DNA from: a bacterium
Lineage (GTDB): Bacteria; Armatimonadota; UBA5829
Assembly (NCBI GenBank): GCA_021373255.1
Contig: JAJFTD010000199.1
Coordinates: 611 to 64,610, forward strand
DNA: 64,000 bases
Direction of reading: 5' to 3'
Shown: piece after piece, positions 1 through 28,068 of the stretch
How the letters are laid out: each line of letters starts with the position of its first letter
How positions within the stretch are numbered: position 1 is the stretch's first letter
The notes under the pieces: generated by a model
What the model was told of the DNA's origin: nothing
The model's input: the letters and a program-made list of their open reading frames with translations, nothing else
The model's database searches: none
Translations under genes and position numbers: made by a program

Positions 1-11
1 TCAATCCCGAG

Positions 12-7711: not shown

Positions 7712-7723
7712 AGAGGACTACCA

Positions 7724-11148: not shown

Positions 11149-12724
11149 GTTGTGGTTAGAGGACTACTACAACCTCAAGGATTGCACCATCCGCTTCAGG
11201 GACTGCGACTCGATATATGGGTCCGCCAGTATAAGGTTTTTTGTTGGGCTTAATGGGTCAGGGAAATCGCGAGCACTTGAGGCCATCGGCCTCATATTCA
11301 GCCACCTCTCCGCTGACCGCTGTCCTGGGATCGGTTTCGAAATAGATTATGAGCTGAATGGAAGGCAGATCCGCGTTTCTACTCGCAAGGGAAAGATCCT
11401 TGACAGGATCGGCGTTGCACTGATGACTCGAGAGTCGGCAGACGCCGAATGGGAGGATCAGGAAGTTTGGGCTTCGTCCGGCACCGGCATTGTGCCCACC
11501 CTAGTGGTAGGCTACTCTACGGGTCCGACAACGGGTCTGCCCTGGACAATGGTCCAGTCAATCGACAAACGCGCGAAGGACATCCGCGAACCAGAGTCCA
11601 GATCTGGAGGCGATTACTCCACTGAGGAACTGGCTGAGGATCAGCAGAAATCTGCCGACCAACAAGATGTCTACTATGCCGAGTCCAACACGATCTTCTT
11701 GGGTGGCGATGACGCGCTATGTGCAGTGATACCTCTACTTGCCCACGATGGGGTCGCGCCGGAAGAGGTAAAGCGTTACAAGCGTCGACGTAATGGCGTG
11801 ATGGATCGGGTCGGGCTTGACCGCGATGAGCCGCTTCAGGCCTTTTCCCTGCTAGTTGCGGGAGACTGGAGAACAAAGCTCTCCCCACGGCGGAGGACAG
11901 CGCTTAGTCGCCTGTTGCGTCGAGCGCACGGCATAGTCCCGGTTGACGTAGATTCTACTGATAGCGTGCCTCGAACTTCAGACAGCGAGGAAGCACTATC
12001 TGACTTCTGCGCGGCATTCGACATTGACCCGGAATTTCAGGACGTGGTCCTGAAGAAGCTCTATCCAAGACCTCTGGCATTCTTTCGTGAGCTGCTAGCT
12101 TGGAAACGCCAAGGCGCGCTTAGGGAGATCCACTTGGTGCTAAAGAAAAGCGACCCGACCGTCAGGGCACTCTTGCCGGAAAACGCCCTCTCGGACGGCG
12201 AGTACTTATACCTTGGCAGGAACGCCTTGCTGCTGATGGTGCGTGAGACGCCCGAGAGTCTGGTCCTGTTCGACGAACCGGATACACATTACAATGACCA
12301 GTGGAAGAAGGAGATGGTTCAGGACATTAGGCGTTGCCTTAGGGATGTAGACCCCGGATACTCCAAGAGCAGCTATCTGACTGAGGTCTTGGTAGCTACT
12401 CACTCCGACCTAACTCTGACTGATGCCGACCCGAGACAAGTTTACTACTTCGATAAGGGCCAGGTGCGCCCGTCGGTCCCAATCCTCTCATTTGCTGCCG
12501 ACAGAGATCAGGTATCGAAAGCTCTTTCAAATTCCGATGGATCGGTGCGCAGCTACTCGGAGCTGATGGTGGAACGCGCTCTAAGAGGAAAGAGCGAAGA
12601 GCGTGTAAGGGAACTACTGGATATTACCGGCCCTGGATTCACGCGCTACTTGCTCCGCAGGAAACTGGCTAGTCTAACTGGCGATAGCAATTCCGGAGGC
12701 GAAGATGCTTCTTCGTCTGAATAG
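11135..12724 (+). CDS. AAA_15/AAA_21-type ABC-like ATPase, Septu PtuA-like
   Basis: Walker A is 'GLNGSGKS'. Walker B and the D-loop are 'LVLFDEPDTH...VATHS'. The start is TTG, with an RBS 'AGGAGG' 6 nt upstream. The gene is followed by an overlapping HNH gene. Confidence 0.55.
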   Translation: MRIYKLWLEDYYNLKDCTIRFRDCDSIYGSASIRFFVGLNGSGKSRALEAIGLIFSHLSADRCPGIGFEIDYELNGRQIRVSTRKGKILDRIGVALMTRESADAEWEDQEVWASSGTGIVPTLVVGYSTGPTTGLPWTMVQSIDKRAKDIREPESRSGGDYSTEELAEDQQKSADQQDVYYAESNTIFLGGDDALCAVIPLLAHDGVAPEEVKRYKRRRNGVMDRVGLDRDEPLQAFSLLVAGDWRTKLSPRRRTALSRLLRRAHGIVPVDVDSTDSVPRTSDSEEALSDFCAAFDIDPEFQDVVLKKLYPRPLAFFRELLAWKRQGALREIHLVLKKSDPTVRALLPENALSDGEYLYLGRNALLLMVRETPESLVLFDEPDTHYNDQWKKEMVQDIRRCLRDVDPGYSKSSYLTEVLVATHSDLTLTDADPRQVYYFDKGQVRPSVPILSFAADRDQVSKALSNSDGSVRSYSELMVERALRGKSEERVRELLDITGPGFTRYLLRRKLASLTGDSNSGGEDASSSE

Positions 12725-13769
12725 ACCAACTTGCCAGCATGAGTTACGGTGCGTCTCTTGCATGCTCAGTCAGGTATTTGGCTATCTGGCAGAGCAGGAG
12801 AGCACAGCTCTTGACAAAGATGATCTAGAGAAAGCGGTCCACGTGTCAGCGGTCTTGCTTGGCCGGCCGAAGTTCATTGAATATCTCAATACGATTTTGC
12901 AGGAGAGCATGGATGATCGAAAGTGCCTTTGGAACGCCTTTCTCCACGATGTCGACTACCTGAGTCAGAGGACCAGCGCGGAGTTCACACTGGCGTTCGA
13001 CACGTTGCCGGAGAGCATACGTGCCACCACGCGCGAGCTGCTGGGTTGGCTCTATGACGATGTGTTTGTAGATGGATGTTTTCGTGGACTGCCCACCGCT
13101 AATGGGAAGGACCTTAACCGTGCTGTCTATTTCGATTCGCACGAAAAGGCCAACCCCCGGGCATCCAAGATCTGCCCGGTGTGCCTGCAGCCTATCAACG
13201 AGCTAGCCAACGCTGAATGCGATCACTTTCTACCGAGAAACCATTATCCTGCCCTGGCGATCCATCCCGATAATCTGGCCTTTGCCTGCGGCGGATGTAA
13301 TGGCAAATATAAACTAGCGCAGGACCCTCTCAGGGAGGGAACTACAGGGAGTCGGTGTCTTCTTGATAGCTACCTACCATATGAGCGCCCGGCTGAGGAC
13401 GAAGTTGATCTGCAGTTTCAAGTGGACAGCACGTTTCGCACTGCCACGCTGTTTGTGGCGCATCCGCAAGATGACGGACACGCAAGTGAGCGCCTAGGGA
13501 ATCTCGAAAGGCTCTACAGACTATCTAGGAGATTCAGCAGTTTCTTACCTGACACGTACTGCGAGCTTGCGGATCAGATACGGATCGCCATAGGTGAGGG
13601 GCGCGAAAGGGACGTGGTGCTAGGCCAACTGCAGAGCATAGGCAGATCACGCCTGCCGGACTACTACCTGAAGAGCCGGCTGGCGAGGTGGATTGCTGGC
13701 ACTGATTTTGACCAGTTCTATCAGTGCTACCTAGATCCCGACTGGATAGTCTCCTGGAGGCGAAGATGA
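12705..13769 (+). CDS. HNH endonuclease, Septu PtuB-like
   Basis: The HNH signature is 'CPVCLQPINELANAECDHFLP...HPDNLAFACGGCN'. The gene overlaps the ATPase gene by 20 nt. Confidence 0.55.
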   Translation: MLLRLNRPTCQHELRCVSCMLSQVFGYLAEQESTALDKDDLEKAVHVSAVLLGRPKFIEYLNTILQESMDDRKCLWNAFLHDVDYLSQRTSAEFTLAFDTLPESIRATTRELLGWLYDDVFVDGCFRGLPTANGKDLNRAVYFDSHEKANPRASKICPVCLQPINELANAECDHFLPRNHYPALAIHPDNLAFACGGCNGKYKLAQDPLREGTTGSRCLLDSYLPYERPAEDEVDLQFQVDSTFRTATLFVAHPQDDGHASERLGNLERLYRLSRRFSSFLPDTYCELADQIRIAIGEGRERDVVLGQLQSIGRSRLPDYYLKSRLARWIAGTDFDQFYQCYLDPDWIVSWRRR

Positions 13770-14671
13770 GCGATATCAAGCTATTCCGCATGGACAAGAA
13801 CTCCGTAACTGAGATCAAAGGCACATCGGTGGCTTTGGAGAAATCCCTGCAAGTCCTGATAGAGGAGCACCTTGAGGAGTTCTTGGGAGTCCGGTTCCTG
13901 GCAAGTGAGTTCACGACTGGCCCCAAACACGGCGGCCGCATCGACACATTAGGCATCGACGAAAACGGCTGCCCGGTGATTATCGAATATAAGCGGGCTA
14001 TCAACGAGAACGTTATCAATCAGGGCCTGTTCTATCTCGATTGGCTGCTGGATCATACGGGCGAGTTCACCTTACTCGTAATGAACAAGCTGGGGAAGGA
14101 CGTTGCCGATTCTATCGCTTGGAACATACCAAGGCTGCTGTGCATTGCCGGTGATTTCACCAAGTATGACGAGCACGCAGTCCAGCAGATCGGCCGCAAC
14201 ATCGAGCTCATTCGTTACCGGCACTATGGCGACCTGTTGCTACTCGACTTGGTAAACGCGGCCCGCACAGAATCCGTCCAGGAGTCAGCGCAACCCAGTG
14301 GGGGGAAGCAGAAGACCTGGGATAAGACCGTGTCTGAGCAGTTGGAGCAGGCCGACCAAGGCACAAAAGACCGCTTTGAGAGTATCAAGGCTTACCTGCT
14401 GGCCTTGGGCGACGACGTCCAGATGAACACGCTCAAGCTCTATGTGGCGTTCAAGAAGATCAAGAATTTCGTGTGCGTGCAGGTCCAGCCAAAAGTCATC
14501 ACGCTGTATCTCAGGCTAGACCCTGCGTCGGTTGAGATAGAAGACGGCTTCACAAGAGACGTCAGCAAGATTGGACACTGGGGCACTGGCGACTTGGAAG
14601 TGGTCATTCGCTCTGACGATGACTTTGAGAAAGCACAACCCTTATTGGCGAAGGCCTACGAGTTAAGCTAG
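13766..14671 (+). CDS. PD-(D/E)xK nuclease-fold protein with a C-terminal domain that resembles DUF5655 from memory
   Basis: The core 'GGRIDTLGIDENGCPVIIEYKR' gives D...E-x-K. The RBS and start context 'GGAGGCGAAGATG' is identical to that of the HNH gene. Confidence 0.45.
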   Translation: MSDIKLFRMDKNSVTEIKGTSVALEKSLQVLIEEHLEEFLGVRFLASEFTTGPKHGGRIDTLGIDENGCPVIIEYKRAINENVINQGLFYLDWLLDHTGEFTLLVMNKLGKDVADSIAWNIPRLLCIAGDFTKYDEHAVQQIGRNIELIRYRHYGDLLLLDLVNAARTESVQESAQPSGGKQKTWDKTVSEQLEQADQGTKDRFESIKAYLLALGDDVQMNTLKLYVAFKKIKNFVCVQVQPKVITLYLRLDPASVEIEDGFTRDVSKIGHWGTGDLEVVIRSDDDFEKAQPLLAKAYELS

Positions 14672-14699
14672 CATCCCGCAGGCAAGGAGAACCGAACAG

Positions 14700-15578
14700 A
14701 TGGGCCAGTTGAACTACCGCAAACACGAGCCGTTATCGCTGAAGAATCACCCAGATTTCGACGAGAAACGGCTCCAGGGCGTAATCGAAGAAGACCCCTC
14801 CATACTTGGACTCGGCGATCTGGAGGTCAGGGACGTAGAGCGAATCCAGCCCAAGGCGGGGCGGCTCGATCTGCTGCTCCGAGATCCCGAGACGGGGAAG
14901 CGCTACGAGGTCGAGATCATGCTCGGCGCGACTGACGAAAGCCACATCATCAGAACCATTGAATACTGGGACATCGAGCGAAAGCGTTACCCCCAGTATG
15001 ATCACTGCGCTGTGATCGTGGCCGAATGTGTCAATTCCAGATTCCTCAACGTGATCGGTCTCTTCAACAGTGCCATTCCAGTCATCGCAATACAACTCAA
15101 TGCCCTGAAGCTCGGTGATGACATAGTTCTCAGTTTCACGAAGGTCATTGACGAGGCCGCCTTGGGACTGGACGACGAAGACGAAGGCTCTGGCGGTAAG
15201 AGTGTCGACCGAGCTTACTGGGAGACAAAGGGCTCGAAGAAGTCGGTGGCGATTGTCGATGAATGCCTGGAGATCCTTCGAGAAGTTGATCCCCAATTGG
15301 GGCTAAATTACAACAAGAACTACATTGGCTTGGCCAATAGGCACGGCGTTAACAACTTTGTAGTGTTCCGCGCCAAGAAGAACTTCATCCGCACCGAGGC
15401 TAGGGTGCCCGACCAAGAGTCCTGGAAGATTCGGCTTGAGGAGGCTGGTATTGTGGTGCTGCCTGGCGTCACGATTCGAGAGAGGCTGCATTTCCGCTTG
15501 ACCAGCAAAGACATCAAAGCGAATCGCGAAATGCTGAAGGAGCTCTTCCAGACGGCGTACGCCAAAGATCAGGAATAG
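14700..15578 (+). CDS. paralogous nuclease-like protein ('GRLDLLLRD...YEVEI') with a similar C-terminal domain
   Basis: Its architecture parallels the preceding gene. An RBS 'AAGGAG' is present. Confidence 0.4.
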   Translation: MGQLNYRKHEPLSLKNHPDFDEKRLQGVIEEDPSILGLGDLEVRDVERIQPKAGRLDLLLRDPETGKRYEVEIMLGATDESHIIRTIEYWDIERKRYPQYDHCAVIVAECVNSRFLNVIGLFNSAIPVIAIQLNALKLGDDIVLSFTKVIDEAALGLDDEDEGSGGKSVDRAYWETKGSKKSVAIVDECLEILREVDPQLGLNYNKNYIGLANRHGVNNFVVFRAKKNFIRTEARVPDQESWKIRLEEAGIVVLPGVTIRERLHFRLTSKDIKANREMLKELFQTAYAKDQE

Positions 15579-15644
15579 CATTGCAGCGCATGCACATCGA
15601 CTCTGCGGCCAAGCGAACTGTGTCTGAGCGCTCGCTCACGAGAA

Positions 15645-15977
15645 GTGAAACAGAAGCAAGTCATGAACGTCGACCGACCGACATTGACCTTACACGAGGC
15701 GATGGTACAGATACTCAGCAAGTGCGCCGACCAGACGGCTGAACATGTATACCTGGCTTCGGAGATAAGGCGGCAGACTCTCTACTGGCAGAATGACGGC
15801 AGCGCGGCCCCTTCTGGCCAGATTGCCGTAAGAGCCAGGAATTACCCGGACCTGTTCGAGAAAATTCTGGCTGATCAAGTTAGAGGCCAGAGGGCAAAGA
15901 TAAGGCTCAGGTATGGGTCTGACAGCACTGGCACCGACGTGTGGACCCGTGATCATTGCACAAGAGAACTGGAGTGA
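15645..15977 (+). CDS. hypothetical small protein
   Basis: ORF only. No motif recognised. Confidence 0.3.
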   Translation: MKQKQVMNVDRPTLTLHEAMVQILSKCADQTAEHVYLASEIRRQTLYWQNDGSAAPSGQIAVRARNYPDLFEKILADQVRGQRAKIRLRYGSDSTGTDVWTRDHCTRELE

Positions 15978-16009
15978 ACTCAAGTAGCCGCGCTCATTGA
16001 GGCGGGTGA

Positions 16010-17773
16010 ATGACAACTATGGAAACCCCGGACCTTGGTGAACAAATGGACTATGCCAAGACAATAGGAGAACTGGGCGATGTAGTCATGCTTGCGGCCC
16101 ACTCAATGCATGCTAAGCTCGACATCAGCGTTATTCCGCCAATGCGTCGCGTAGCTTGGCCTGCTTGGGATGGCTTTCTGCCCTGGCGATATCCTGACGA
16201 AGCTTATGAAAGCATGGCTGTGTTAGTACGAACAGCGGGCCGGTCGGATGACTGGCTCAGGATGGGGTTCACCGGTCAATCGGGAGCGTCCTCCTACGCG
16301 GCGGAAGAGCACCTGCGCACGTGGAACACCCGTCGCAGCAAGGACCCGGACAAGGCAGCATTTGCCGACGATGTGTGCCGCAACCGATGGCCGCTTGTGG
16401 GTATTGACGAGCTGGCTAACCGTGTGGACGGGCTCGCACGGTATCTTGAAAAGAATGCACCATCGCTGCAGCTTACTGGGTTTCCAGAAACGAGATACCA
16501 GGACTCATTCTGGTTTCATGCCGGATTTGCCACAGTCTATCCAACAAGACTCCCCGTGTACGTTCTGCATCATGCAAGCCCCGCAGACACCTACACGTAC
16601 TTGTGGCCCCGCCAGCCGGCTGCCAGTCTTGACGTCGGTGAGTTGCGGACTCTATTACCTACCGCATTTGGTGAGGGTCCCGGGTTCTGGTATGGTTCGG
16701 GCTTTCGCGCTTACACCTGTGACTGTGAGTTGGTGCAGTGTGTTCCGTACCCTCAGTCGGCTCTATTGGAGTGTTTTACGAGCGCAGATGAGTTGTTGAT
16801 CCCGCGTCTGCGGACGAAGGTCATTGAAATCGGTCGTGCGATTCTTGCGGAACTGTCTAGTTCTCTAACCTCAAGAAACCCGCAGAGCCTTAGACATCGA
16901 TGCGTATCGATACTGACCGAAAGCCTTGATGCGAATGAGTTCGACAGTCTGGCGCTGGCGGATTATGGGATGACCCACAGCCTGGGGCTTGGTTACTCCG
17001 CACTGGGGTGCTACAATCTGGTTCACGGGGGTTTCCTCAGCAACCTCATCACGCTGATTGGCCATTGCGAGGAAGAACTTGCGGTCGGCCGCCTCTGGCA
17101 GACTCGACAGGCTATTGCCGGCGCTTTCTCCAGTGCCATTGCATTCGATGGTTTCGCTCCCGTGCGGTTCTGGTATGACGAAATTGATGGAACAGAGGAT
17201 CAGATCGCTGTCGACCGGGCATATGAAGTGTTCCACTCTCGCGCAAGCCAAGAGAGGGCATTCTGGGACTCATTCCGCCGTTGGATGATTGGGGTTCGGG
17301 ATGAGTTCTACACAGAGATATTTGGGGAGCGAGTCAGACGCCGCAACCAGCCCGAGTTTGAGGCCTATATGCGACAGATGGCAAGACTGGCAGCGAGTTC
17401 CGTAGAACTGACAGGCCAGCTTCCACAGAGCCGGGTCTTTCTGGAAGGTCAAGCTGATACTTGCACTTCTGTCCAGCCCACCATTAACCAGCCTGACCAA
17501 GGCGGCTCGAGGCACCAGTTCCGCCACTGGGACAACTATCGCCAAGTCGAGCGAGATGGCGTCACATATTCCCTTTCCCCCGCGCAGGCTCAGGCCGTCA
17601 GAGTACTTCTCGAAGCACGCGAGGCAGGAGAACAAACCTTATCGGCAGCCACGCTTCTTTCCCGTATGGGGGAACTTGCTCCACTAAGAATTAGCGAGAT
17701 ATTCAGAAGCAATGATCCTCGTAAAGCATTGGTCAAACGGATCGCCAAAGACTCCTATGAGCTGAATATCTGA
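16010..17773 (+). CDS. hypothetical protein of 587 aa, function unknown
   Basis: A long ORF in the same orientation as the element cargo. No recognisable motif. Confidence 0.5.
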   Translation: MTTMETPDLGEQMDYAKTIGELGDVVMLAAHSMHAKLDISVIPPMRRVAWPAWDGFLPWRYPDEAYESMAVLVRTAGRSDDWLRMGFTGQSGASSYAAEEHLRTWNTRRSKDPDKAAFADDVCRNRWPLVGIDELANRVDGLARYLEKNAPSLQLTGFPETRYQDSFWFHAGFATVYPTRLPVYVLHHASPADTYTYLWPRQPAASLDVGELRTLLPTAFGEGPGFWYGSGFRAYTCDCELVQCVPYPQSALLECFTSADELLIPRLRTKVIEIGRAILAELSSSLTSRNPQSLRHRCVSILTESLDANEFDSLALADYGMTHSLGLGYSALGCYNLVHGGFLSNLITLIGHCEEELAVGRLWQTRQAIAGAFSSAIAFDGFAPVRFWYDEIDGTEDQIAVDRAYEVFHSRASQERAFWDSFRRWMIGVRDEFYTEIFGERVRRRNQPEFEAYMRQMARLAASSVELTGQLPQSRVFLEGQADTCTSVQPTINQPDQGGSRHQFRHWDNYRQVERDGVTYSLSPAQAQAVRVLLEAREAGEQTLSAATLLSRMGELAPLRISEIFRSNDPRKALVKRIAKDSYELNI

Positions 17774-17902
17774 TCTCCGAAGCAGTTACGCCTCAATTAC
17801 GCTCCAATAACGCCCGACCTACGCCTAATGACTCCTGCTTTGCCGCTATGCTGAAGATGTGCATGGCCCGGCAAGAGTCCACGCATACAATCTCCTCCTG
17901 AA

Positions 17903-18277
17903 TTGGGAGGATTAGAAGCCCTGAGAGAGCCTTGCCGGGCCTGCCTCTCGGGGCTTTTCTACTTCTCTGTAAGGCGATTAACGATGTGTGGTAAGCATCA
18001 GGAAATCAAAGTGATCATGGAGTTGGCGGATTCCGCAATCCCGTCGGATGCGGACACTGTCGCTGACGCGCTCGCCCTCGACTTGCAGTCGGACGTCGTG
18101 ACGCGCTGGAGCGACGAAGTCCGGGAGGCCATCGCTTGCTCCAAGCGCATTGCAAATCCACTGAGCCCGGTGCAGGCCAACTTGGCTGCGCAGAGAAGAG
18201 ACGAGATTCAAGCCAGGATCACCTTACTAGAGAGGGAGTTGCTGGAACTAAGGAGCGTAGACTATGAGCATAAATAG
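17903..18277 (+). CDS. hypothetical small protein
   Basis: The ORF ends by overlapping the start of the primase gene. Confidence 0.3.
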   Translation: MGGLEALREPCRACLSGLFYFSVRRLTMCGKHQEIKVIMELADSAIPSDADTVADALALDLQSDVVTRWSDEVREAIACSKRIANPLSPVQANLAAQRRDEIQARITLLERELLELRSVDYEHK

Positions 18278-20993
18278 AGAAGTGGTTACGGCAGTCGAAG
18301 CGGCGCTCACGGCTATCACTGAGTCTGGACAGGTAGTCGAACTGCGAGTCCTCGACTACATGCGGCCAGGCTCAAGCTACCCCTGCACGATGTCGGGCTA
18401 CTTTGATGACTACCGGGCAATGGCCGAAGAGGCCGCTAAGCTCACGCCGCACGCTTCGGGAGTTTACTTCACCCCGAACCCCGTGAAGCCTGAACTGCTT
18501 GCCCGCGTCTGTAACAAGACGCGGGCTATGGGAAAGGGTGACAGCACAACTTCTGACAAGGATGTCATCCGGCGAAGGTGGTTCCTTATCGACTGTGACG
18601 CTGCACGAGTAAGCGGCATATCCGCAAGCGATGAAGAACACGCGGCGGCCATCAGCAGAGCTGAGACTATCCGGACGGCCTTGAGCGGGGAAGGATGGCC
18701 GGAACCGATACTTGCGGATTCGGGGAATGGCGGACACCTGATGTATCGCGTTGACATTCCGACAGATGATAAAGGGCTTGTGAAAGCGTGTCTTGAGGCT
18801 TTGGCGCAGCGTTTCAACAGCGACGGGGTACACGTGGACACCGCTGTGTTCAATCCCGCCCGAATCTGGAAGTTGCCCGGCACGCTTGCCCGCAAAGGCG
18901 AAGACATGCCCGGCAGACCCCATAGGTTAGCTAAGCTGTTGAACGTGCCCGAACCACTGGAAGTGGTTGCCGCTGGGCTGCTTCAAACACTTGCTGAGAC
19001 AGCCAATGCCGAAGTGCCTGCCATCGAGCATCCGATTGCCGGCGGGTTTGATCTTGTGTCTTGGATATCAAGCCATCTGGGCGCAGCTTCGCATAAGCGA
19101 ACAGCAGAGGGCGAAGTATGGACAATCGAGGTGTGCCCATTCAATCCAGAGCACCGCCGGGGTGAGGCGTTCATCATCCGCCGCGTCGATGGCACGATCG
19201 GCGCGGGCTGCAAGCACAACTCCTGCGAATGGGGGTGGCGAGAACTGCGGGAGAGATTCGAGCCAGGCTGCTATGATCGAGCACCGGAGATTTCCGCACG
19301 CACCGAAACGGAGTTCCGAAGACCAGACTTCCCTCAAAGCGACTTGGACAACGCGGAGTACTTCGTCACGCGGCACGGACGTAACGTGCGGTTCAACGTC
19401 GATACCGCGCAGTGGCACGTCTGGAATGAAGGGCTGTGGGACGTCGACGGCAAGGGCAACGTGAAGCGACTTGTGGCTGAGTCCGTGCGGTCGATGCACG
19501 CTCTTCTGCCCAACATTACCAACTTCAAGCAACGCGAGGCGCTCTTCCGCCACATCCATACATCGGAAAGCCGTTCCCGGCTTGAGGCTATTGAGAGCTT
19601 GGCACAGAGCAGGGATGGCATTCCTATCCAGAGCGCCGAGCTTAACTGTGACCCGATGCTTCTGAACGTCAGGAACGGCACAATCGACCTGAGAACAGGC
19701 GAGCTGAAACAGCATCAACGTGGTGACTTGATCTCGAAGCTCTGTCCTGTTGCGTATGATCGGGAAGCACAGTGTCCGAGGTGGATGCAGTTTCTTGAAG
19801 AAGTGTTTCAGGGCAACGCTGATCTGATCGGGTTTGCGAAGCGTTCAGTAGGCAACTGGCTTACGGGTGACTGCCGTGAGGAAACCGCTTGGGTGCTCTA
19901 TGGCAAGGCTCAGACCGGCAAGAGCAAGTTCCTCGCAGTGATACGCGCGATCCTTGGCGACTACGCGGCGACAGCGGCCATGACGACATTTATGGGATCG
20001 GGGGAACGCAATACGTATGATCTTGCCGACCTTGCAGGAAGGAGGTTCGTGACGGCATCAGAGGCGAGTGACAGCGAAACGTTCAACGAGCCGCTGCTAA
20101 AAGCGCTCACAGGCAGAGACGCTATAAAGTGCAGACCGATCTACGGCCGCCCGATGGAGTATCTGCCACAATTCAAGATCGTGTTCGCGACAAACGAGCT
20201 TCCACGCATCAAGTCTCAGGGCCTGGACATGCGGCGGCGGCTGAAGGTGATACCGTTCCGCCAGCGTTTCTATGACCCGGATGAAGGCAGACAGCCCGTC
20301 AAAGATGACCGATTGCTCGAAAAGCTCACCAAGGAACTGCCCGGGGTACTGCAGTGGGCGGTAGAAGGGTGCCTTGAATGGCAGCGTGAGGGCTTGGGCG
20401 TGCCTGCCTGCGTCAAAGCAGAGATCAAGTCCATATTCGAGCAGCAAGACCCACTTGCCGAGTTTCTTGAGGAGTGCTGCGTTATCGAGCCAGCCGCACT
20501 GGTAAGGACCTCTGACCTCTACCAAGCACTAGGAGAGTGGAGCGAATCGAAGGGCATTGAGCCGCCTTTCAAGAACACGCAGACGCTCAGCCGAAGCCTC
20601 ACCAAGCGCGACGAAATCGACTCGATCCGCGACTGGACGGGCCAGAGGGTGTTTCGAGGAATTGGTCTCTTGTCGCAATTGACGCAACATGGCAATTCCT
20701 GCAAACCCTCTCACGAGGGGGATTCTTGCGAGGGGGTCTGCGCAAACAGCCCAGATGCGTCAATTGCGTCAGACGACGAGAATACCGATGCACTTGTCTA
20801 CGCTTGCGGAGCGTGCAAAGCACAGGTTTGGCTCACCGACTACAAGCCCCAAGTCTACACTTACTCATGCGAGTCGTGTGGTCATGATGGTATAGTGACT
20901 CACTGTGACTACCGGTTTTGGCTAGGTCATCGAAGTGCTGATACGGCAACAGCAGGTGTACAGCAACAAAGCGGGGAATTGCGCGGGAGGTAA
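18264..20993 (+). CDS. bifunctional primase-polymerase fused to a D5/P4-type SF3 helicase, with a C-terminal zinc ribbon
   Basis: The Prim-Pol-like motif is 'SGNGGHLMYRVDIP'. Walker A of the SF3 helicase is 'GKAQTGKSKF'. The C-terminal zinc ribbon is 'CGACKAQVW...CESCGHDG'. Confidence 0.75.
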   Translation: MSINREVVTAVEAALTAITESGQVVELRVLDYMRPGSSYPCTMSGYFDDYRAMAEEAAKLTPHASGVYFTPNPVKPELLARVCNKTRAMGKGDSTTSDKDVIRRRWFLIDCDAARVSGISASDEEHAAAISRAETIRTALSGEGWPEPILADSGNGGHLMYRVDIPTDDKGLVKACLEALAQRFNSDGVHVDTAVFNPARIWKLPGTLARKGEDMPGRPHRLAKLLNVPEPLEVVAAGLLQTLAETANAEVPAIEHPIAGGFDLVSWISSHLGAASHKRTAEGEVWTIEVCPFNPEHRRGEAFIIRRVDGTIGAGCKHNSCEWGWRELRERFEPGCYDRAPEISARTETEFRRPDFPQSDLDNAEYFVTRHGRNVRFNVDTAQWHVWNEGLWDVDGKGNVKRLVAESVRSMHALLPNITNFKQREALFRHIHTSESRSRLEAIESLAQSRDGIPIQSAELNCDPMLLNVRNGTIDLRTGELKQHQRGDLISKLCPVAYDREAQCPRWMQFLEEVFQGNADLIGFAKRSVGNWLTGDCREETAWVLYGKAQTGKSKFLAVIRAILGDYAATAAMTTFMGSGERNTYDLADLAGRRFVTASEASDSETFNEPLLKALTGRDAIKCRPIYGRPMEYLPQFKIVFATNELPRIKSQGLDMRRRLKVIPFRQRFYDPDEGRQPVKDDRLLEKLTKELPGVLQWAVEGCLEWQREGLGVPACVKAEIKSIFEQQDPLAEFLEECCVIEPAALVRTSDLYQALGEWSESKGIEPPFKNTQTLSRSLTKRDEIDSIRDWTGQRVFRGIGLLSQLTQHGNSCKPSHEGDSCEGVCANSPDASIASDDENTDALVYACGACKAQVWLTDYKPQVYTYSCESCGHDGIVTHCDYRFWLGHRSADTATAGVQQQSGELRGR

Positions 20994-21002
20994 CACAACG
21001 CG

Positions 21003-21341
21003 ATGGGCTGGGAAGCTAGACAACGCGGCGGCCGATACTACACACGGTCCAAGAAAGTCGGCGGGCGGGTAGTGCGGGAATACGTGGGAACCGGCATGGC
21101 GGCAGAACTTGCAGCCGAACTTGACACGCTTGAACGGCAGGAACGCGAGCGTGCGCATGCGGCTGTTAAGTCCGAGCGAGACACCGACAAGACACTGGAA
21201 GCGGCCCTACACGATTACTACAAGATCGTTGATGCAATAACGGAGGAGGCCCTGCTTGCAGCAGGGTACCACAAGCACAAAGGACAATGGAGGCGCAGAC
21301 GTGGCAAGAAAGAAGACGATAACCGACCTGGCAAAGCTTGA
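21003..21341 (+). CDS. hypothetical small basic protein
   Basis: ORF only. Confidence 0.3.
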   Translation: MGWEARQRGGRYYTRSKKVGGRVVREYVGTGMAAELAAELDTLERQERERAHAAVKSERDTDKTLEAALHDYYKIVDAITEEALLAAGYHKHKGQWRRRRGKKEDDNRPGKA

Positions 21342-21387
21342 TGATCTTCATCTGTTGAGAGAGGCAGACGGAGGTAGCCAGGAAGCC

Positions 21388-21864
21388 ATGACGTTGTTGC
21401 AGCAGCATTATGACGCCAATCCGGGCGCCTTTCCATGCGCCGACATGCCAAAGACTGTGGCTGGAGCACGCATGGTACAAGCGGGGCTTCCCGCCGGGAC
21501 TAGACTCGCGCTGCAACACACGAGTGACAGACTCCTCGAAGATGTAGCAGGAAAGAACCCCACCCCGCTTGAAAAACTACTCGCCGAACGCATAGTAGCT
21601 TGCTGGCTTGACGTCCAAATCCTTGAGGTACGCTGGGCATCTGCTCAAGAAGTAACGTGCCAAAAAAGTGAATACTTCTCTCGCATGCTTGACCGTGCTC
21701 ATAGCCGCTATTTATCAGCCATAAAGGTTCTGGCACAGGTGCGAAGACTCAACGCGCCGTTGATACAACTCAACGTAGCCGACAAGCAGATCAACGTGCT
21801 CTCTGGCACAGATATGGGCAATGAAGTGGCCGACGCTCAATGTGCGAGCGGGGACGGCGCATAA
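21388..21864 (+). CDS. hypothetical protein
   Basis: The ORF has an RBS 'GGAGG' before the ATG at 21388. The longer ORF call from 21256 overlaps the upstream gene. Confidence 0.35.
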   Translation: MTLLQQHYDANPGAFPCADMPKTVAGARMVQAGLPAGTRLALQHTSDRLLEDVAGKNPTPLEKLLAERIVACWLDVQILEVRWASAQEVTCQKSEYFSRMLDRAHSRYLSAIKVLAQVRRLNAPLIQLNVADKQINVLSGTDMGNEVADAQCASGDGA

Positions 21865-21999
21865 ACTGAACTCCATTGTGCTTCGGATGAATTCTTCAAG
21901 AATCTCCTCCAGATTAGTTGACGCGTTGTCAACTATGGAGTATATTGACATGTAGGCAAGGGTCGGATGAGAGGCCTGCTGTTTGGAACGGAGGAGACC

Positions 22000-22206
22000 A
22001 TGACTGTCACACTGTCAGAAGCTGCAGAAGCGAAGCATATCAGCCGCAATGCTGTCTGGAAGGCGATAAGGCGCGGTGAGCTCACCGCCCGTAAGTCATC
22101 GGGAGGTGTGTGGCTGGTCGAAGAGGACCAGCAGTGGCAGGACTATAGACCCCGCAACTACGTGGGCAAGCGCGGGGAATCGGCATCCCGCGTTGAGGAG
22201 GAGTAA
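22000..22206 (+). CDS. HTH_17/excisionase-family DNA-binding protein, a likely recombination directionality factor
   Basis: The sequence 'MTVTLSEAAEAKHISRNAVWKAIRRGEL' is a helix-turn-helix. It sits directly upstream of the recombinase. An RBS 'GGAGGA' is present. Confidence 0.55.
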   Translation: MTVTLSEAAEAKHISRNAVWKAIRRGELTARKSSGGVWLVEEDQQWQDYRPRNYVGKRGESASRVEEE

Positions 22207-22208
22207 GC

Positions 22209-23906
22209 ATGGCACTACTTGATCTTGTCAACAACTCTGATGTCAGGTCGGCGGAGACAAAGGCACAGCAGAAAGCCCTCGCTTACATCCGCGTTTCGCA
22301 CGAAGATTCGGCTGACAGGGGAGCCAGTCTTGAGACCCAGCGGCGCGACATCGAGTGCTACGCCGCACGTGAAGGTATTGAGGTTGTCGAATGGTTCGAG
22401 GAGCCCGGCAAGTCAGCATTCAAAGACTCAGCAAAACGCCCGGAGTTCCAGCGAGTCATCAGAAATGCCAAGGAGTGTTCCTCTATCTCAATTATCCTCG
22501 TCTGGAAATCCGATAGGTTCAGCCGCGACCGGTATCTGGCTAGTGCGGTAAAGGGCGAACTCCAGAAAGCAGGGGTCCGAGTGCTGTCCGTTACCGAGCC
22601 TTACGATTCGAGAACCACGTCTGGTATCGTGATGGAATCCGTAACCGACGCAATCAACCAAGTGCGGTCTATGGAGATTGGCTTGGTCACGCACCGAAGC
22701 CTTCTGGTAAATTGCGAAATGCGCGACCCGGCAACTGGCTGGGCATACAAGAACGGTGGAATGGCGCAGTTTGGATACCGCAACCTGCGCGTATATGCGG
22801 ACGTAGATCGGAAGTATCAACGTATCAGTCATTGCGTCTGGGAGCTTGACGATGAGATAGTTGCTGGCAAGCCCATACACGAGTGGGCTCGCGTAGTCTT
22901 GCTTGATTGGCGGCTCGGAGAAAAGGCCGGGCCGGACGTCATCGCCAAGCGACTAACACAGGCGGGCGTGCCCACACCGCGCGGTCGAAAGGCCTGGTCT
23001 GACAGCAGCGTCAACTACCTTCTGATGCCGGATAAGCTTCTTCAGTATGCCGGCGTTGGAATATGGAACAGGCGAGACTTTCGCACTGGCGGCAAGTCGT
23101 GGAAGGACAAAGAAGACTGGAAGGTCGTGGAGAATGCCCATCCCGCAATTATCACGATGGAGCAAGCGGAAGCGATACACGCCATCCGTGAGCAGCGCAC
23201 ATGCCGGCCTGGCAAGCGGGGCAAGAAGCCCTCACCATTCGTTCTATCGGGTGGTCTGTTGGTCTGCTCGCATTGCGGTGCGAACTACGCCGGAAGAAAC
23301 AAGCACTCCGTGGACTACTACGTATGCGGTGCTCAAATCTACCGAGACGGAGCCGACTGCGACACTCCCTGGTATATCAGACGTGAAGATGCTGAAAATG
23401 CCGCCTTTGATTGCATACAGAAGGTGCTATCATCCAGCTCAAAGCACACCCTAAGAGCGGTGAACGCATATAACAAGTGGGTGGACTCTCAACTGTCCCT
23501 CTACGGTTCGACCGAAAACGCCAGGCGCACTGAGATCAAGCGTCTGCGGTCGGAGGTCGACAACCTTATGCAATCACTTGCCGCAGGCATAGACCCCAGC
23601 ACAATCAGTGCGGCCATCAATGAGCGCGCGCAGCACATTCAGAAGCTTGAAGCTCTTGGCGACGTGGAACTACCTCAGAAGATCACGACGAAGGAACTGG
23701 ATGCTCAAGCAGCAGAAGTGCGACAGATCGCGGAGAACTGCCCGCCTGATAAGAAGAGGCTGATTCTCAGGAAGTATATTGACTCAATGCGGGTAGTAGC
23801 AGAAGAGCGGACCATCAAAGTGATGATCCGCCCTCTACCCACGATTTGTGGTCATTGGTTGGTAGCCCCGAAGGGATTCGTTGGCCTGACCAAACGTTCA
23901 GATTGA
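22209..23906 (+). CDS. large serine recombinase (integrase), full length
   Basis: Catalytic motif 'YIRVSHEDS...R', followed by a recombinase domain and the zinc ribbon 'CSHCGANY...YYVCG'. The last 15 codons overlap the right copy of the direct repeat. Confidence 0.85.
   Translation: MALLDLVNNSDVRSAETKAQQKALAYIRVSHEDSADRGASLETQRRDIECYAAREGIEVVEWFEEPGKSAFKDSAKRPEFQRVIRNAKECSSISIILVWKSDRFSRDRYLASAVKGELQKAGVRVLSVTEPYDSRTTSGIVMESVTDAINQVRSMEIGLVTHRSLLVNCEMRDPATGWAYKNGGMAQFGYRNLRVYADVDRKYQRISHCVWELDDEIVAGKPIHEWARVVLLDWRLGEKAGPDVIAKRLTQAGVPTPRGRKAWSDSSVNYLLMPDKLLQYAGVGIWNRRDFRTGGKSWKDKEDWKVVENAHPAIITMEQAEAIHAIREQRTCRPGKRGKKPSPFVLSGGLLVCSHCGANYAGRNKHSVDYYVCGAQIYRDGADCDTPWYIRREDAENAAFDCIQKVLSSSSKHTLRAVNAYNKWVDSQLSLYGSTENARRTEIKRLRSEVDNLMQSLAAGIDPSTISAAINERAQHIQKLEALGDVELPQKITTKELDAQAAEVRQIAENCPPDKKRLILRKYIDSMRVVAEERTIKVMIRPLPTICGHWLVAPKGFVGLTKRSD
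23860..23880. repeat. 21-bp direct repeat TGGTAGCCCCGAAGGGATTCG, right copy, putative attR core
   Basis: It is an exact match to 4541-4561. Here it is translated in a different frame ('VAPKGFV' against 'GSPEGIR'). Confidence 0.7.
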
Positions 23907-23947
23907 GCTGGCGGAACAGGGTATTTGAGCGTGAATTGATCGAGGCG
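23902..23947. repeat. flank sequence immediately right of attR, copy 1
   Basis: It matches 27909-27960 with an 8-nt indel. Read in the frame of the truncated recombinase after the core, it encodes '...WRNRVFERELIEA*'. Confidence 0.55.
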
Positions 23948-24253
23948 TGAACCACAACCGATGAGTTATGCGGCAGCGGATACTCGTCAATTGGCCGTGC
24001 AGTCTGCTCATCGCCCAACCCACTGATGAGCCGATAGTCCCACGATATACCCGAAGTAACATGCTAGAGGCTGGCCAGTATATCCCATGCGCAGTGTCTG
24101 GAACAGCTTGCTTATGCTGTGCCATTCGTGGAAGGCACAACACTGCTTATCCGACTCCAGGAGTGTAGCGGAAGACCAGCTAAGTGCAGTTCTGCCCGAA
24201 AACGAGAGCCGCGTCTTGTTCGGCGGAGACGCAGCGGCGAGGCATCAGTTGGC

Positions 24254-25546
24254 TCAGCGCAGTTGGCCCAGCCACCACTGGCGGCTTCTACGTATGTGCA
24301 GCGACTGGTTCTTCCGCGCGGCGATACTTGGATATGCAATGCGCAGGAATTGCAGAGTATAGTCTATGACTGTAATATCGTCTGATACAGACAGTGTGTG
24401 TGCGGCTAATTCGCAATAGTGTGGCTCAAAGTGTCCCCGCGTACGCAGCCAGTATAGATCCACAGCCTGCAGAGTTTCAGACGCTTCCAGAATAGTGGCC
24501 GCATTGCCGGAATCAAGCTGCTGCAACCTCTGGCCCCAGCCCGATCCCACAATGAACAGCTCTTCCGAAGGTGTCATAGACGGCTTTGCAGCCAGTTCGT
24601 CGAGCCTTTGCCATAGTGGGTTCTGATCTCGTTTGGTGCACAAGGCGACCCATATGCGGTGACCGACAGACTGGCACCCAAGCCATGGTTGCCAGCGCCC
24701 GTTCGGTAGATCGACCACAAGCTCACCACCGGCAGTACTTGCTTCAATATTGGCGGTGCCAGCCAGCGCAGCTATCCCCAAAAGCTCCGCATTGTCTTCT
24801 GTGAAGATGTCCACGCAGTGGACATAGGCTATCTGAAGGTTAGGGATTTCCTCCGTATCCGATGTGAACTGAGCAAACTCGCCTTCGGTAACATATCCGC
24901 AAGCGCCATAGCCCGTTGGTCTTTGAATGTAGAAGTCCTCATCGTCGGGACGGGAAATGCGTAGCAGGTCCGGTGCGGCTTGGGGTGACTTCCTGCCATT
25001 AACCACGGCGACGATATAGACGTCTATGGTCTCACCACTGATGCCGTCGGTTGCCGCAGTCAAGGCTTGCACGATGCGTCGGACCGCGTTGCCTACCCCT
25101 GTCGTGTCAATGCACAGTACCTTGAGCTTATCCTCCGCTTTCGCATTGGCCGCTAGCAGCGCTTCCATCTCGGAGACTGCATAATCAAAGCAAGTAGCAC
25201 CGTGTAGCTTCTGAGGCCAGTTCAGGCCAGGAAGCATGTGGAACACATTCTCAAAGGCCCGAGTGTGCAGTCTGCCAGGCAGATATTGTATGGTCGGGAG
25301 TGCGATGGCTAAGCCCCCACTTGCGAAGAAGAAAACCAAATCTGGCTGCACTGCTGCTATATGGTCAGCCACTCCACTCACGACCGAATAAAGACTGTCG
25401 AACGATGAGTAAGGAATGTGGTATATGTTGCTCAGAGCATTATCAATCTCTTCAGATAATACTGCTGCAAGTTCGTTTTCGGAAGGATGAGCTGTATAAC
25501 TCTGGATTCTTCTGAATACGCGCTCGCCACCGCACATGGTCAGCAC
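24254..25546 (-). CDS. hypothetical protein of 430 aa, with a possible PRTase-like signature
   Basis: The motifs 'LKVLCIDTTGVGNAV' and 'LVFFFASGGLAI' are reminiscent of phosphoribosyltransferase motifs. This is a weak call. Confidence 0.45.
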   Translation of the reverse strand: MLTMCGGERVFRRIQSYTAHPSENELAAVLSEEIDNALSNIYHIPYSSFDSLYSVVSGVADHIAAVQPDLVFFFASGGLAIALPTIQYLPGRLHTRAFENVFHMLPGLNWPQKLHGATCFDYAVSEMEALLAANAKAEDKLKVLCIDTTGVGNAVRRIVQALTAATDGISGETIDVYIVAVVNGRKSPQAAPDLLRISRPDDEDFYIQRPTGYGACGYVTEGEFAQFTSDTEEIPNLQIAYVHCVDIFTEDNAELLGIAALAGTANIEASTAGGELVVDLPNGRWQPWLGCQSVGHRIWVALCTKRDQNPLWQRLDELAAKPSMTPSEELFIVGSGWGQRLQQLDSGNAATILEASETLQAVDLYWLRTRGHFEPHYCELAAHTLSVSDDITVIDYTLQFLRIAYPSIAARKNQSLHIRRSRQWWLGQLR

Positions 25547-26215
25547 CTCCTACGATGATGTGAAAACTGTTGTGATACGACTGATAGCTAGGCAGGCATT
25601 ATGTTAGCATGCCGGTGTTGTCGCCAGGTGACTCCTTTTCGACAAGCGAAATGCCAGACAGCTGCTGACACACATCCCCTGTTGCAGGCTGAACCTTGCA
25701 CTCCAATTCGCGTGCTGCTCTTCAGACTGCCCCTTTAGCATTCCTGCTGGCCTTTCAAGTAAAAGCTCAGTCATCGGCGCTCTTACCTGCAACGGGATTG
25801 GGAGCAACTACATCGGTGAGAAGAAGAAAGCTACGACTTGGAGAGTCTGCGCGTTTTGCGCTGCACTTGTCGCATGATTCATTCACCCGTTCGTTGCTGC
25901 AGGCAGGCCTATAGCCGGACTTACCGGTCTTCGGGCTCTCCCAGCGGCGGGCATACACGTCGTCACGCCCTCGTAAGAGACTGCGGATGAGCGATCTTCT
26001 CTTCTGGAGGCGAGCCGTTCGTCATAGGCGCATCGGCAAATGATGGTGCCGAACATGCTGACTCTCTCTCTCCCGCGCGGCTTGATCCTGGAGTTTGCTC
26101 AGCTCCCGAGTTAATTCAGCACGCTCTGCATCGAGCACTTTCAGTCGCTGTTCAATCTCAATTATTCTGCTTTCGATGTCAAATATCCGGCTGTTCATGC
26201 TTGGCCAAATCCGCG

Positions 26216-27184
26216 TTAGTGAGCCTTTTCACTGTGCCACGGTCCCGGGGCGATCCAGTTTGAGGCAAAAGCTTCACCGGAACATAATGCGACTACTACT
26301 GGGGCAAGAAAGTCTCTCACTGCCGATGTGATCTCGCTAAATTCCACCGGTAAATCTTCTACCTGAAGTCGTTTTCGAAAAGCCACCCATTGTACCTGTT
26401 TCTCGGATGTGAAATCCTCGGAAAACGCCACAATCTCGGCAGGCAGATCCGTATTTCGGTTGCTGAATGTCTGCCTGATAGCTTCGGAAAGCACTGCACC
26501 ATCAAAATCGAACTGGCGAGACAGCAGCCAGATATCGTGGAAATCCTTCATCCGGCTGTTTAACTCACGCAATTTTACCATCGCCTCGAACTTCTCCGCA
26601 ATTGCACTCTCGCGACTATAGCACAGCAATCGCGGCGCCGGAAAATCCAGAATTGTTGGCAGTTCAAATATCTCTGGCTCCGGATGCACAACATCTCCAA
26701 ATCCGATATCGATTTGCATATTGACTCTAGCCGAATCCAGCAGTCCTTGAAAGCGAACTCGTATTCCTTTATAATCTGCCTCTTCCGTGATCTGCTCAGT
26801 CTGGATTGTCTGAAGATCAAAGATGAGCCCGCCCGGCTCGATATCTACTTGCAGCGCATCTCGGAACTGAGCAACGATATCTGACTCACTGTTGCTTGTT
26901 CTGCCCAACATGTCGATATCCATTGTTGGGCGGGTTTCGGGAGAGTTCCAGACGCGCAACAGCAGAGCACCCTTTAGGACGAACCTGCTCGCATGCTTTG
27001 ATTGTGATAAGCGATACAAAAAGCGCTCCATCGCGTAATACTGCAGCAGTTCAGCGAATGGTCGCTTATCAGCCTTGGCTTTATTGAGAAGGCGCTGCCG
27101 GATTGAAGCAGGAAGATTCTTGATAGATCTGGTATTCACAGCATCGCCTCGATATAAGGCCTCATAACGTTTTCGACCCTGCAT
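26216..27184 (-). CDS. AbiEii-type nucleotidyltransferase toxin (DUF1814 family)
   Basis: The hallmark 'LKGALLL...TMDIDM' is present. The gene overlaps the upstream AbiEi-like gene. Confidence 0.7.
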   Translation of the reverse strand: MQGRKRYEALYRGDAVNTRSIKNLPASIRQRLLNKAKADKRPFAELLQYYAMERFLYRLSQSKHASRFVLKGALLLRVWNSPETRPTMDIDMLGRTSNSESDIVAQFRDALQVDIEPGGLIFDLQTIQTEQITEEADYKGIRVRFQGLLDSARVNMQIDIGFGDVVHPEPEIFELPTILDFPAPRLLCYSRESAIAEKFEAMVKLRELNSRMKDFHDIWLLSRQFDFDGAVLSEAIRQTFSNRNTDLPAEIVAFSEDFTSEKQVQWVAFRKRLQVEDLPVEFSEITSAVRDFLAPVVVALCSGEAFASNWIAPGPWHSEKAH

Positions 27185-27756
27185 ATTTTGGCATACTTCA
27201 GCAGCTCGCCGACACTGAATGGTTTCCTTGCCCTATAAAGTCTAAGCGCCTCCAAAACAACATCCATACCGAGCTTGTTTCTGAACCTGAAACAATCCGC
27301 CAGCGTTTTCTCCGGACTGTATACCCTCACCCCAACGTCATCCACTGTATGCTCCTGAATCCCCTGAGTGAGGGCATCGCCAGAGAAGCGATGAACAGTG
27401 ATAGGCGGATAGTCCAGCCGTGGCGTCTCAGCACCTTTTTCGAGTGCTATGGAGATGGTGTGAGGAATCTGCATTGTAATATCGTGGAAAGCCAGAGCAG
27501 AAACAAGGCAGATAACCGCCCTGGGAATGCGAGATGCTACAGTCACAATATCAATGTTGGATACTGGCTGCTGATCTGTCAGCCGATATACACCGCGCGA
27601 TATCTGAACTAGTTCTCCAGCATCACGAAGTTCGTACAGGGTGCGCGGGTGGACACCCGCCTGAATGGCTTCAGCAGTCCGGATAACCCCGCTTTTCTCT
27701 CTTATCAGACGTTTCGCATCTTCTCTTGCGGAAGCGGTTGGGCCACGTTTTCTCAT
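27136..27756 (-). CDS. AbiEi-family antitoxin or transcriptional regulator
   Basis: The N-terminal region 'GVIRTAEAIQAGVHPRTLYELRDAGELVQISRGVYRL' is characteristic of AbiEi. Confidence 0.7.
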   Translation of the reverse strand: MRKRGPTASAREDAKRLIREKSGVIRTAEAIQAGVHPRTLYELRDAGELVQISRGVYRLTDQQPVSNIDIVTVASRIPRAVICLVSALAFHDITMQIPHTISIALEKGAETPRLDYPPITVHRFSGDALTQGIQEHTVDDVGVRVYSPEKTLADCFRFRNKLGMDVVLEALRLYRARKPFSVGELLKYAKICRVENVMRPYIEAML

Positions 27757-27908
27757 GGATAGAATTACCTACGTTTATTGTTGACTATAGGTATTATTAT
27801 CCATGTAGCAAGAAAAAGCAAGTGCCTTCTTTCTAGTTGCCAGCATAGTTGCTATGGATACCCTGGTAGATACGAGTCCTCGGTTCCACGTTTCATATAT
27901 TGCCCTGT

Positions 27909-27960
27909 ATTGAGCTCAAAACTTGGCAAAACAGGGCATTTGAGCGTGAATTAGTAGAGG
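27909..27960. repeat. diverged second copy of the attR right flank, a scar of the 3' end of a third recombinase
   Basis: It encodes '...TWQNRAFERELVEV*', which is conserved at the protein level with copy 1. The upstream recombinase body is absent: there is an in-frame stop at about 27867. Confidence 0.5.
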
Positions 27961-28068
27961 TCTGAGGGGTCGTGTATAGCTTACTAATCATCTTCTGTCG
28001 ATGCATGCACTACGCGATAAGAAAATACTACTCGAGTAGTTGGTAACAGGTACCTGAGATACAGCGTT

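Follow-up and report, generated by a model that had tools for sequence, protein, structure and literature searches.

How do two related copies of a recombinase C-terminus come to lie 4 kb apart inside one defence island? The question is raised by a 64,000-nt stretch of an Armatimonadota metagenome-assembled genome (MAG; lineage UBA5829, assembly GCA_021373255.1, contig JAJFTD010000199.1, positions 611 to 64,610 of the forward strand), hereafter the window, of which positions 1-14580 are matched at 99.99% by a second assembly, GCA_039683435.1. Near its left end, a fragment of a large serine recombinase (LSR), here called recombinase A, runs into a 21-bp att core. A second copy of this core closes a 19.3-kb integrative island that we call element B, and to its right stand the first tail copy and, about 4 kb downstream, the second. 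We refer to the 70 nt to the right of the core, which hold the last 23 codons of the reconstructed gene, as U3; their consensus is WPDQTFRLSWRNRVFEREL[IV]E[AV] followed by a stop. An initial annotation of the window had read the second copy as the decayed end of a further recombinase gene and suggested at least three serial integrations at one hotspot. Based on the analysis described here, the two copies are probably tails of LSRs whose attP site lies in frame within the integrase gene and mimics tRNA-Glu, the tails having been stacked at one site.

The att core and the frame that crosses it

The core, TGGTAGCCCCGAAGGGATTCG, occurs exactly twice in the window, at 4541-4561 and 23860-23880 (forward strand), where about 0.01 occurrences would be expected by chance. 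The left copy is the attL and the right copy the attR of element B, which thus lies between 21-bp direct repeats, the common-core arrangement of LSR elements. Read in reverse complement, the core is the 3′ end of tRNA-Glu(CTC); it matches exactly, over 22-23 nt, the tRNA of locus L012 (L012 5796-5872). In L012 it ends an intact tRNA-Glu(CTC) gene on the opposite strand and leads rightwards into the tRNA body, as at an empty site. tDNA islands are marked by att cores that equal the 3′ end of a tRNA gene and, judged by this identity, the core here mimics the 3′ end of tRNA-Glu and is more than mere recombinase sequence.

The two sides of the core behave differently among loci. To its left, L005, L007, L011 and L012 have the downstream flank of tRNA-Glu, a unit of about 258 nt that ends in a 14-bp hairpin and is tandemly duplicated in three of the four; L004 and L014 appear to carry a diverged form of it. 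To its right, U3 follows in the window (copy 1) and in all loci except L012, where the tRNA body follows. Loci with the order flank, core and U3 resemble attL junctions formed by islands that entered at tRNA-Glu. The flank units themselves (L005 2700-3230; L011 2600-3120; L007, reverse strand) start with CCCCAAGAATTCACGC, end in a degenerate tRNA-Glu 3′ end, TTTGGTGCCCC, and contain hairpins of 13-17 bp; a simple terminator scan did not call the flank hairpin, whose loop is 9 nt. The duplicated flank may be a structured element or else a scar that older integrations left behind.

Recombinase A (3537-4580, forward strand) is identical to P0001, a "MAG Armatimonadota recombinase family protein". 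It has the Pfam domains PF07508 (Recombinase) and PF13408 (zinc ribbon) without a resolvase domain, is truncated, aligns with residues 234-571 of the full-length homologue P0002 and at present ends in ...GSPEGIRGNGHI. The initial annotation had proposed that joining this gene through the left core to the sequence right of the right core yields a clean end, and it does: 3447-4561 joined to 23881-23950 reads in frame to ...NGSPEGIRWPDQTFRLSWRNRVFERELIEA, with the stop at 23948-23950, and A read across the core after the join ends in ...GSPEGIRWPDQTFRLSWRNRVFERELIEA. The segment so reached is U3 copy 1 (23881-23950, forward strand), an intact 23-codon integrase tail, WPDQTFRLSWRNRVFERELIEA, that is in frame with A once element B is removed and shares 98.8% identity with the U3 of L004 and 93% with that of L005. 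In a model of the reconstructed protein (AlphaFold2; alignment of 8 sequences; mean pLDDT, the predicted local distance difference score, 74), residues 346-353 and 356-360, that is, QTFRLSWR and VFERE, are predicted to form a beta-hairpin (pLDDT 71-81) after a disordered linker, and long helices (182-279) lie between the zinc ribbon and these C-terminal strands. The left edge of the array has been reshaped by several deletions. A heavy-metal P-type ATPase gene at 2883-3546 is wrecked, its N-terminal ~120 codons being fused straight to the GDGINDAP...AFGYN C-terminal part, and the truncated A begins about 90 nt past this wreck.

A degenerate scan for the tail codons located the core plus the following 70 nt (about 90 nt) in three GTDB genomes (L004-L006, two of them Armatimonadota), and also matched five metagenome contigs (L007-L011) and four small called-ORF (open reading frame) loci (L012-L015); in at least eight independent loci, U3 stands next to the core. 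L004 is part of contig CAZBSI010000007.1 and L005 of JBDKSP010000068.1. Among eight independent copies, the ratio of nonsynonymous to synonymous differences (pN/pS) is 0.14 in the frame of the initial annotation vs 1.5 and 1.34 in the other two. The position of the stop is kept throughout (TGA seven times, TAG once), an arginine is kept despite a CGG/AGA change, and 12 of the 19 inferred changes are synonymous vs 20% expected (P=5e-5). The codons past the core, on its P′ side, are constrained at the protein level.

This frame also continues upstream into integrase genes. At three loci, A-type integrase 3′ ends of the pattern [CHS][IM]Q..G[SR]PEG are in frame with U3, namely in the window (HIQFNGSPEG), L006 (SIQRSGSPEG) and L009 (CMQRIGRPEG), and P0002 (CIQTSG...), the closest full-length homologue of A, uses the same frame. 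L006 and L009 have the contiguous layout of A-type body, core and U3 with decayed bodies, and in L013 a B-type remnant lies against U3. Integrase 3′ stumps of the last 60-300 nt are in fact repeatedly left on core and U3, with about 200 nt fused to a DUF1848 fragment in L013 (4240-4545), about 300 nt in L006 (reverse strand, ~1990-2290) and about 60 nt in L009 (3440-3470).

Could U3 instead be a small gene (31-37 codons) or an RNA, structured or regulatory, that sits at the island edge and overlaps the core by chance? Five attL-type loci have an in-frame ATG 2-7 codons before the core, ORFs of 70-86 aa have been called there (P0012, P0014, P0015) and the upstream region is rich in hairpins. 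The ATG of L005, L011 and L012, however, lies inside the hairpin after tRNA-Glu and is present even at the empty site of L012. Moreover, the DNA upstream of the core is unrelated between locus types and its frame is not conserved, running in attL-type loci through the tRNA hairpin, which argues that U3 is not an independent gene of the host flank. As for an RNA, there are no Rfam matches and the substitution pattern is that of coding sequence. We regard both forms of this alternative as very improbable, and U3 is best read, from its codons and their surroundings, as the detachable tail of an LSR whose attP would lie inside its own ORF.

Other candidates for U3 were rejected. A large structured RNA made of the U3 block and some 600 nt of hairpin-rich sequence upstream gave no Rfam match at the gathering threshold in the window or in L004-L006; an E-value search gave a spurious miRNA match, and the upstream part consists of the duplicated tRNA-Glu flank and its hairpin. 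U3 is not a piece of the adjacent heavy-metal ATPase gene, being neither hydrophobic nor similar to it, and minus-strand ORFs over U3 are in the antisense codon register, which the substitution pattern does not fit.

Integrase B and its relatives

Element B (4562-23859, forward strand) carries a type I restriction-modification system, Septu-like PtuA/PtuB, a D5-type primase, a helix-turn-helix (HTH) protein resembling recombination directionality factors (RDF; 21967-22206) and integrase B; phage structural genes gave no matches in it. Integrase B (22209-23906, forward strand) is a full-length LSR of 565 aa with the Pfam domains Resolvase (PF00239, E=1.8e-23), Recombinase and Zn_ribbon_recom, sharing PF07508 and PF13408 with A. 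It has its R-x-S motif near the N-terminus as YIRVSHEDS and is, by domain architecture, a putative attP x attB recombinase. Its ORF crosses the right core and ends 26 nt past it, so that the integrated-state protein ends in ...VAPKGFVGLTKRSD (...VGLTKRSD). A comparable tail (...FGDKRRYRVRLAA) is gained only by joining 22209-23880 to the DNA right of the left core, from 4562 on. This P′ arm of element B (4562-4627, forward strand) encodes the tail EGMATFEIVFGDKRRYRVRLAA, predicted for integrase B in the excised circle. The arm sequence AATGGCCACA mirrors TGTGGTCATT at 23847-23856, and the reconstructed attP of B has 16/30 symmetric positions about the centre between CCCCG and AAGGG vs 8/30 for the site that was used.

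Reading into tRNA genes is a habit of the family. A profile search returned 26,016 relatives, 140 of them at E<1e-30. Among the best 150 homologues, many have C-terminal peptides that correspond to tRNA 3′ ends translated in antisense, including GVEPxxRP, GFEPTTFGL and GNRTH, with FNGSPSGIRTRDLRLEG as an ending in the A-type frame. P0088 runs into a tRNA in the frame FNGSPSGIR, as in the A-type, and in L019 the LSR P0011 overlaps tRNA-Ser(CGA) by 52 nt in antisense (5018-5109). An integrase ORF that spans the core is seen in B, 26 nt past it, in A, in frame through it, and in homologues with tRNA-antisense ends. tDNA islands have an intact tRNA gene on one side and, on the other, the displaced 3′ fragment; this pairing was not found in the window (ARAGORN, blastn) but is seen in a relative, P0011 adjoining tRNA-Ser in L019. 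Across proteins P0016-P0162, two frames are represented among the antisense-tRNA endings, one giving G[VFI]EP... and the other G[IWR][RT]T..., and the L019 contig also has a tyrosine integrase 2 kb upstream.

Relatives with no adjacent tRNA (P0003, P0004 and P0016) have tails of their own, of 20-30 residues after P-x-G codons. P0003, located between an HTH/nuclease module and an amidase module in L016, probably shows the intact unintegrated state for a related integrase with a different tail. At the DNA level, P0003 and P0004 have tRNA-like mimics at their [AV]PRG codons, and P0004 and P0016, although from different 50% clusters, both end in ...RGHGFRAA. All that the family tails have in common is a loose aromatic-basic pattern, F-x3-[YW]-x-R-x-R.

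The tail of the window is not that of its nearest homologues. A conserved FEREL-type tail was sought in the homologues of A and is absent from all of P0002-P0008 in the alignment. P0002 and P0007 have a different core-like sequence at the same gene position, TGGTAGGGC[AG]CTTTGAA (L002 6195-6225; L003 1785-1815), which suggests a different target specificity within the clade. The predicted excised-form tail of integrase B ends in ...RVRLAA and the tails of P0004 and P0016 in ...GFRAA, both resembling ssrA-like C-terminal degradation tags, and the integrated-form tail of B (...TKRSD) is unlike such tags; a degradation-tag role for the excised-form tails is speculation.

The second tail copy and the history of the array

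U3 copy 2 (27910-27965, forward strand) comprises the last 17 codons and the stop (27963-27965), reads ...KTWQNRAFERELVEV and ends in ...TWQNRAFERELVEV. Aligned with copy 1 (23909-23950 vs 27924-27965), it shows 81% identity over 42 nt; the local alignment scores 44, vs 14.5 +/- 2.2 (maximum 29) in 2000 shuffles and 25 for the next best place in the window, and the 23-mer AACAGGGYATTTGAGCGTGAATT is restricted to the two copies, with 0.00 occurrences expected. A profile (nhmmer) built from seven copies of other genomes, with those of the window left out, found copy 1 as 23858-23951 (E=5.5e-32) and, over model positions 49-99, copy 2 as 27910-27968 (E=3.6e-10). Forty-two nt is a short stretch and open frames of 14-23 codons are common, but a shuffle z-score of about 13 and the profile E-value refute chance similarity, which we give practically no weight. 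The initial annotation had called this second stretch a decayed homologue of the tail, and both alignment and profile bear it out. The annotation placed the two stretches rightly, with ends a few bases short at both stops, 27960 being 5 nt short.

The profile alignment also locates the 8-nt indel that had been noticed: it is an insertion in copy 2, tcaaaact at 27916-27923, that breaks the frame. The in-frame stop some 40 nt upstream is a TAG at 27867-27869. Copy 2 has neither the core nor the first ~45 nt of U3. TGGTAG at 27864-27869 was considered as a diverged core and rejected, being part of a segment common to L004 (there CCTAGCAG); the profile alignment starts at 27910. The insertion also gives rise, within 27899-27936, to a perfect inverted repeat of 7 bp (TGCCCTG...CAGGGCA), which the other U3 copies do not have. 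Past the stop, 27966-28012 (forward strand) is homologous to the DNA after U3 in L005, the blastn match running from L005 3282-3374 to window 27929-28012 at 78.5%.

The island segment between the tails (23951-27909) encodes, on the minus strand, a 430-aa unknown protein (24254-25546; no match in Pfam, PADLOC or PHROGs), the first ~148 codons of a TOTE-type primase-helicase of the archaeo-eukaryotic primase (AEP) type (25785-26228; 66% identical to an intact 817-aa gene of L004), AbiEii (26216-27184) and AbiEi (27136-27756). Downstream of this remnant, the 430-aa gene, which is unrelated, has taken the place of the rest of the primase-helicase gene. At 88% identity, window 25778-27875 matches L004 3843-5941, where the same AbiE pair (88-93% identity) lies beside U3 together with the complete 817-aa primase-helicase and without a second U3. 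The island segment thus recurs with different cargo beside the same tail, which agrees with the earlier assignment of the 430-aa gene and this AbiE pair to an older element. Copy 2 sits where two AbiE-bearing island segments meet.

Three explanations of copy 2 can be held against this layout. In the first, the two copies are attL/attR-type repeats left when a 4-kb cassette with the AbiE and 430-aa genes entered a single U3, the crossover falling in a shared 15-nt block, ATTTGAGCGTGAATT. To the left of this block, copy 1 is indeed typical of the U3 family and copy 2 diverged; to its right, copy 2 continues like the post-U3 DNA of L005 and L007, and homology of copy 1 stops at 23951. However, the post-stop sequence differs between most loci anyway, the U3 homology of copy 2 extends more than 20 nt to the left of the block, across the 8-nt insertion, and no recombinase is encoded between the copies. 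The AbiE segment of L004, which has no second U3 at its far end, also argues against U3 copies as insertion repeats of an AbiE cassette, and we find this explanation improbable.

The second, close to that of the initial annotation, takes copy 2 as the stump in situ of a third complete recombinase gene, whose body lay immediately to the left, where the first AbiE pair is now, and was deleted. Integrase stumps on core and U3 are common elsewhere (L006, L009, L013), and in a tandem array an integrase body does abut the U3 of the next element. Against this, copy 2 has also lost the core and the first 45 nt of U3, which is more than the gene body, and, as far as 27875, the DNA on its left has its homologue in the AbiE segment of L004, which is not followed by U3 there. 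In addition, the tail lies on the far (P′) side of attP, so that in an integrated element it stands opposite the body and a lone tail is no proof of an adjacent deletion. A stump in situ is possible but, in our view, doubtful.

We therefore read copy 2, on its homology, as the decayed tail of a further, more diverged element. Of the initial annotation, the coding 3′ end reached across the core, the decay of copy 2 and the pile-up of several elements at a single att site hold. Loss of a recombinase body precisely at copy 2 is plausible, though unproven.

The history that we propose would run as follows. In a clade of LSRs, attP would lie inside the integrase ORF, some 25-30 codons before the stop, with a core that copies the 3′ end of a tRNA in antisense, here tRNA-Glu(CTC). 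Integration would cut the integrase gene at the core: the body would remain at one end of the element and read into the tRNA or the neighbouring element, and the last ~23 codons (U3) would go to the opposite end, next to the second copy of the core. Where elements stand in tandem, the body of the left one would then abut the tail of the right one. An A-type element would once have lain directly to the left of the U3-led island, A being a complete gene that ran on across the core to the end of U3 copy 1. Element B, with a related integrase and the same 21-bp core, would then have inserted at that core and split A from the tail, and later deletions would have taken the N-terminal half of A. Copy 2 would be the tail of a further diverged element that lost its core and first half and gained the 8-nt insertion, marking an older junction inside the present defence island. 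The data show the repeats, the match of the core to tRNA-Glu, the coding signature of U3, the unbroken frame and the tendency of the family to run into tRNA genes, and they support serial integration at one site; from them we infer the order of events, a need of the excised form for the tail and a former place of copy 2 beside an integrase.

Several results weigh against this history. ARAGORN found no tRNA gene in the 64-kb window, where blastn matches the two core copies only and finds none of the tRNA-Glu downstream flank, so that an array at tRNA-Glu in the present genome is not demonstrated. The site used by element B is hybrid or attP-like, not a canonical attB, and LSRs are not expected to recombine attP with such a site. 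The former status of copy 2, which has no core, as an att junction comes from homology alone. No full-length recombinase with a U3 (FEREL-type) tail, which the initial annotation had suggested looking for in other serine recombinases of the organism, was found in databases of 5.8 billion and 1.84 billion proteins, and U3 had 0 matches in IMG/VR. For U3, an intact gene of body, core and tail in an excised or unintegrated element, or a circle junction, was not observed. A phmmer comparison of the tail with those of 162 family members gave no significant relative, leaving the supposed resemblance to other recombinase tails as a loose motif. Lastly, the codon statistics of U3 come from eight short, partly related sequences. 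Their pairwise pN/pS counts lack phylogenetic independence, the U3 of L007 and that of L009 are almost the same, and the alignment behind the model of A held just 8 sequences.

Known integrases and the growth of defence islands

Integrase B resembles the integrases of phiC31, Bxb1, A118/LI and TP901-1 in its Resolvase, Recombinase and zinc-ribbon architecture and long helices (coiled coil), and element B is like those of canonical large serine integrases in having a short att site with a dyad centre and a small RDF-like HTH protein. Described serine integrases, however, have their attB in protein-coding genes, with common cores down to 3 bp, and are said not to use tRNA genes (PMC9262239, PMC4383910), whereas the core found here has 21-22 bp, is the same as a tRNA 3′ end and falls within the ORF of the integrase. 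An attP within the integrase coding sequence is known from IntP of the myxophage Mx8, which acquires a new 3′ end on integration (PMC6070905); that enzyme, however, is a tyrosine recombinase, in which the effect on activity was tested. The "suicidal" archaeal tyrosine integrases of SSV type also have the site in their own gene, which is partitioned on entering a tRNA gene, and self-disrupting recombinases have been stated to occur only in archaea (PMC8371274). There the split takes a large part of the enzyme; here, about 23 C-terminal codons would be swapped and the body left intact. In the mycobacteriophages BPs and Brujita, attP lies in the 3′ part of a phage gene and integration into a tRNA gene removes a C-terminal tail (PMC9262239). 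Those phages have a tyrosine integrase, and it is their repressor gene that is split. A further likeness would be the ...RLAA and ...FRAA endings described above, which are reminiscent of ssrA-like tags.

As in Islander-type tDNA islands and in the accretion of integrative and conjugative elements (ICE) and their cis-mobilizable derivatives (CIME), copies of a tRNA 3′ end separate successive elements or remnants in the window, with defence cargo in this case. The known cases of tandem island accretion at tRNA genes are driven by tyrosine integrases (PMC4383910). Here only serine recombinases are present, and the repeated unit includes integrase-tail codons. We came across no serine integrase in the literature searched that is described as targeting tRNA genes and swapping its tail, though large recent surveys may hold such cases.

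To the right of copy 2, a long defence-type run occupies 28069-48377 (minus strand), with a second AbiE pair, a gene like those of uracil-DNA glycosylases (UDG), a SEC-C protein, a PycTM effector, a radical SAM/B12 protein, a GT4 "conflict" glycosyltransferase, a 1149-aa helicase and DUF4238; its GC content is about 0.50 vs 0.57-0.59 from 49 kb onward. It is followed by a Hen1–Pnkp RNA repair cluster with two RlaP genes and a TPR/HEAT protein (48876-57220) and by a cluster with an SNF2-like helicase, a PLD-domain protein and DUF6361 (57483-63835, minus strand).

As decay products, the two tails are ordinary mobile-element wreckage; it is the behaviour of the integrase family that is unusual. 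As a tentative extension that we consider less probable than not by a wide measure, a widespread LSR clade may target tRNA 3′ ends with cores of about 20 bp and use the tail swap as a sensor of the integration state, acting on directionality, site choice or stability and favouring the accretion of defence islands at a resident attL. On that same tentative footing, only the excised form would have the conserved, structured tail. The proposed lineage would be one of serine integrases that target tRNA genes, whose attachment site is a tRNA mimic in their own gene and whose C-terminus is rewritten by integration. If confirmed, it would offer genome engineers serine integrases with conserved natural landing pads, tRNA genes, across many bacteria, as well as a natural test case for the effects of a C-terminal tail on the directionality or stability of serine integrases. 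For the Armatimonadota, the array shows how defence islands grow by the stacking of elements at one site.

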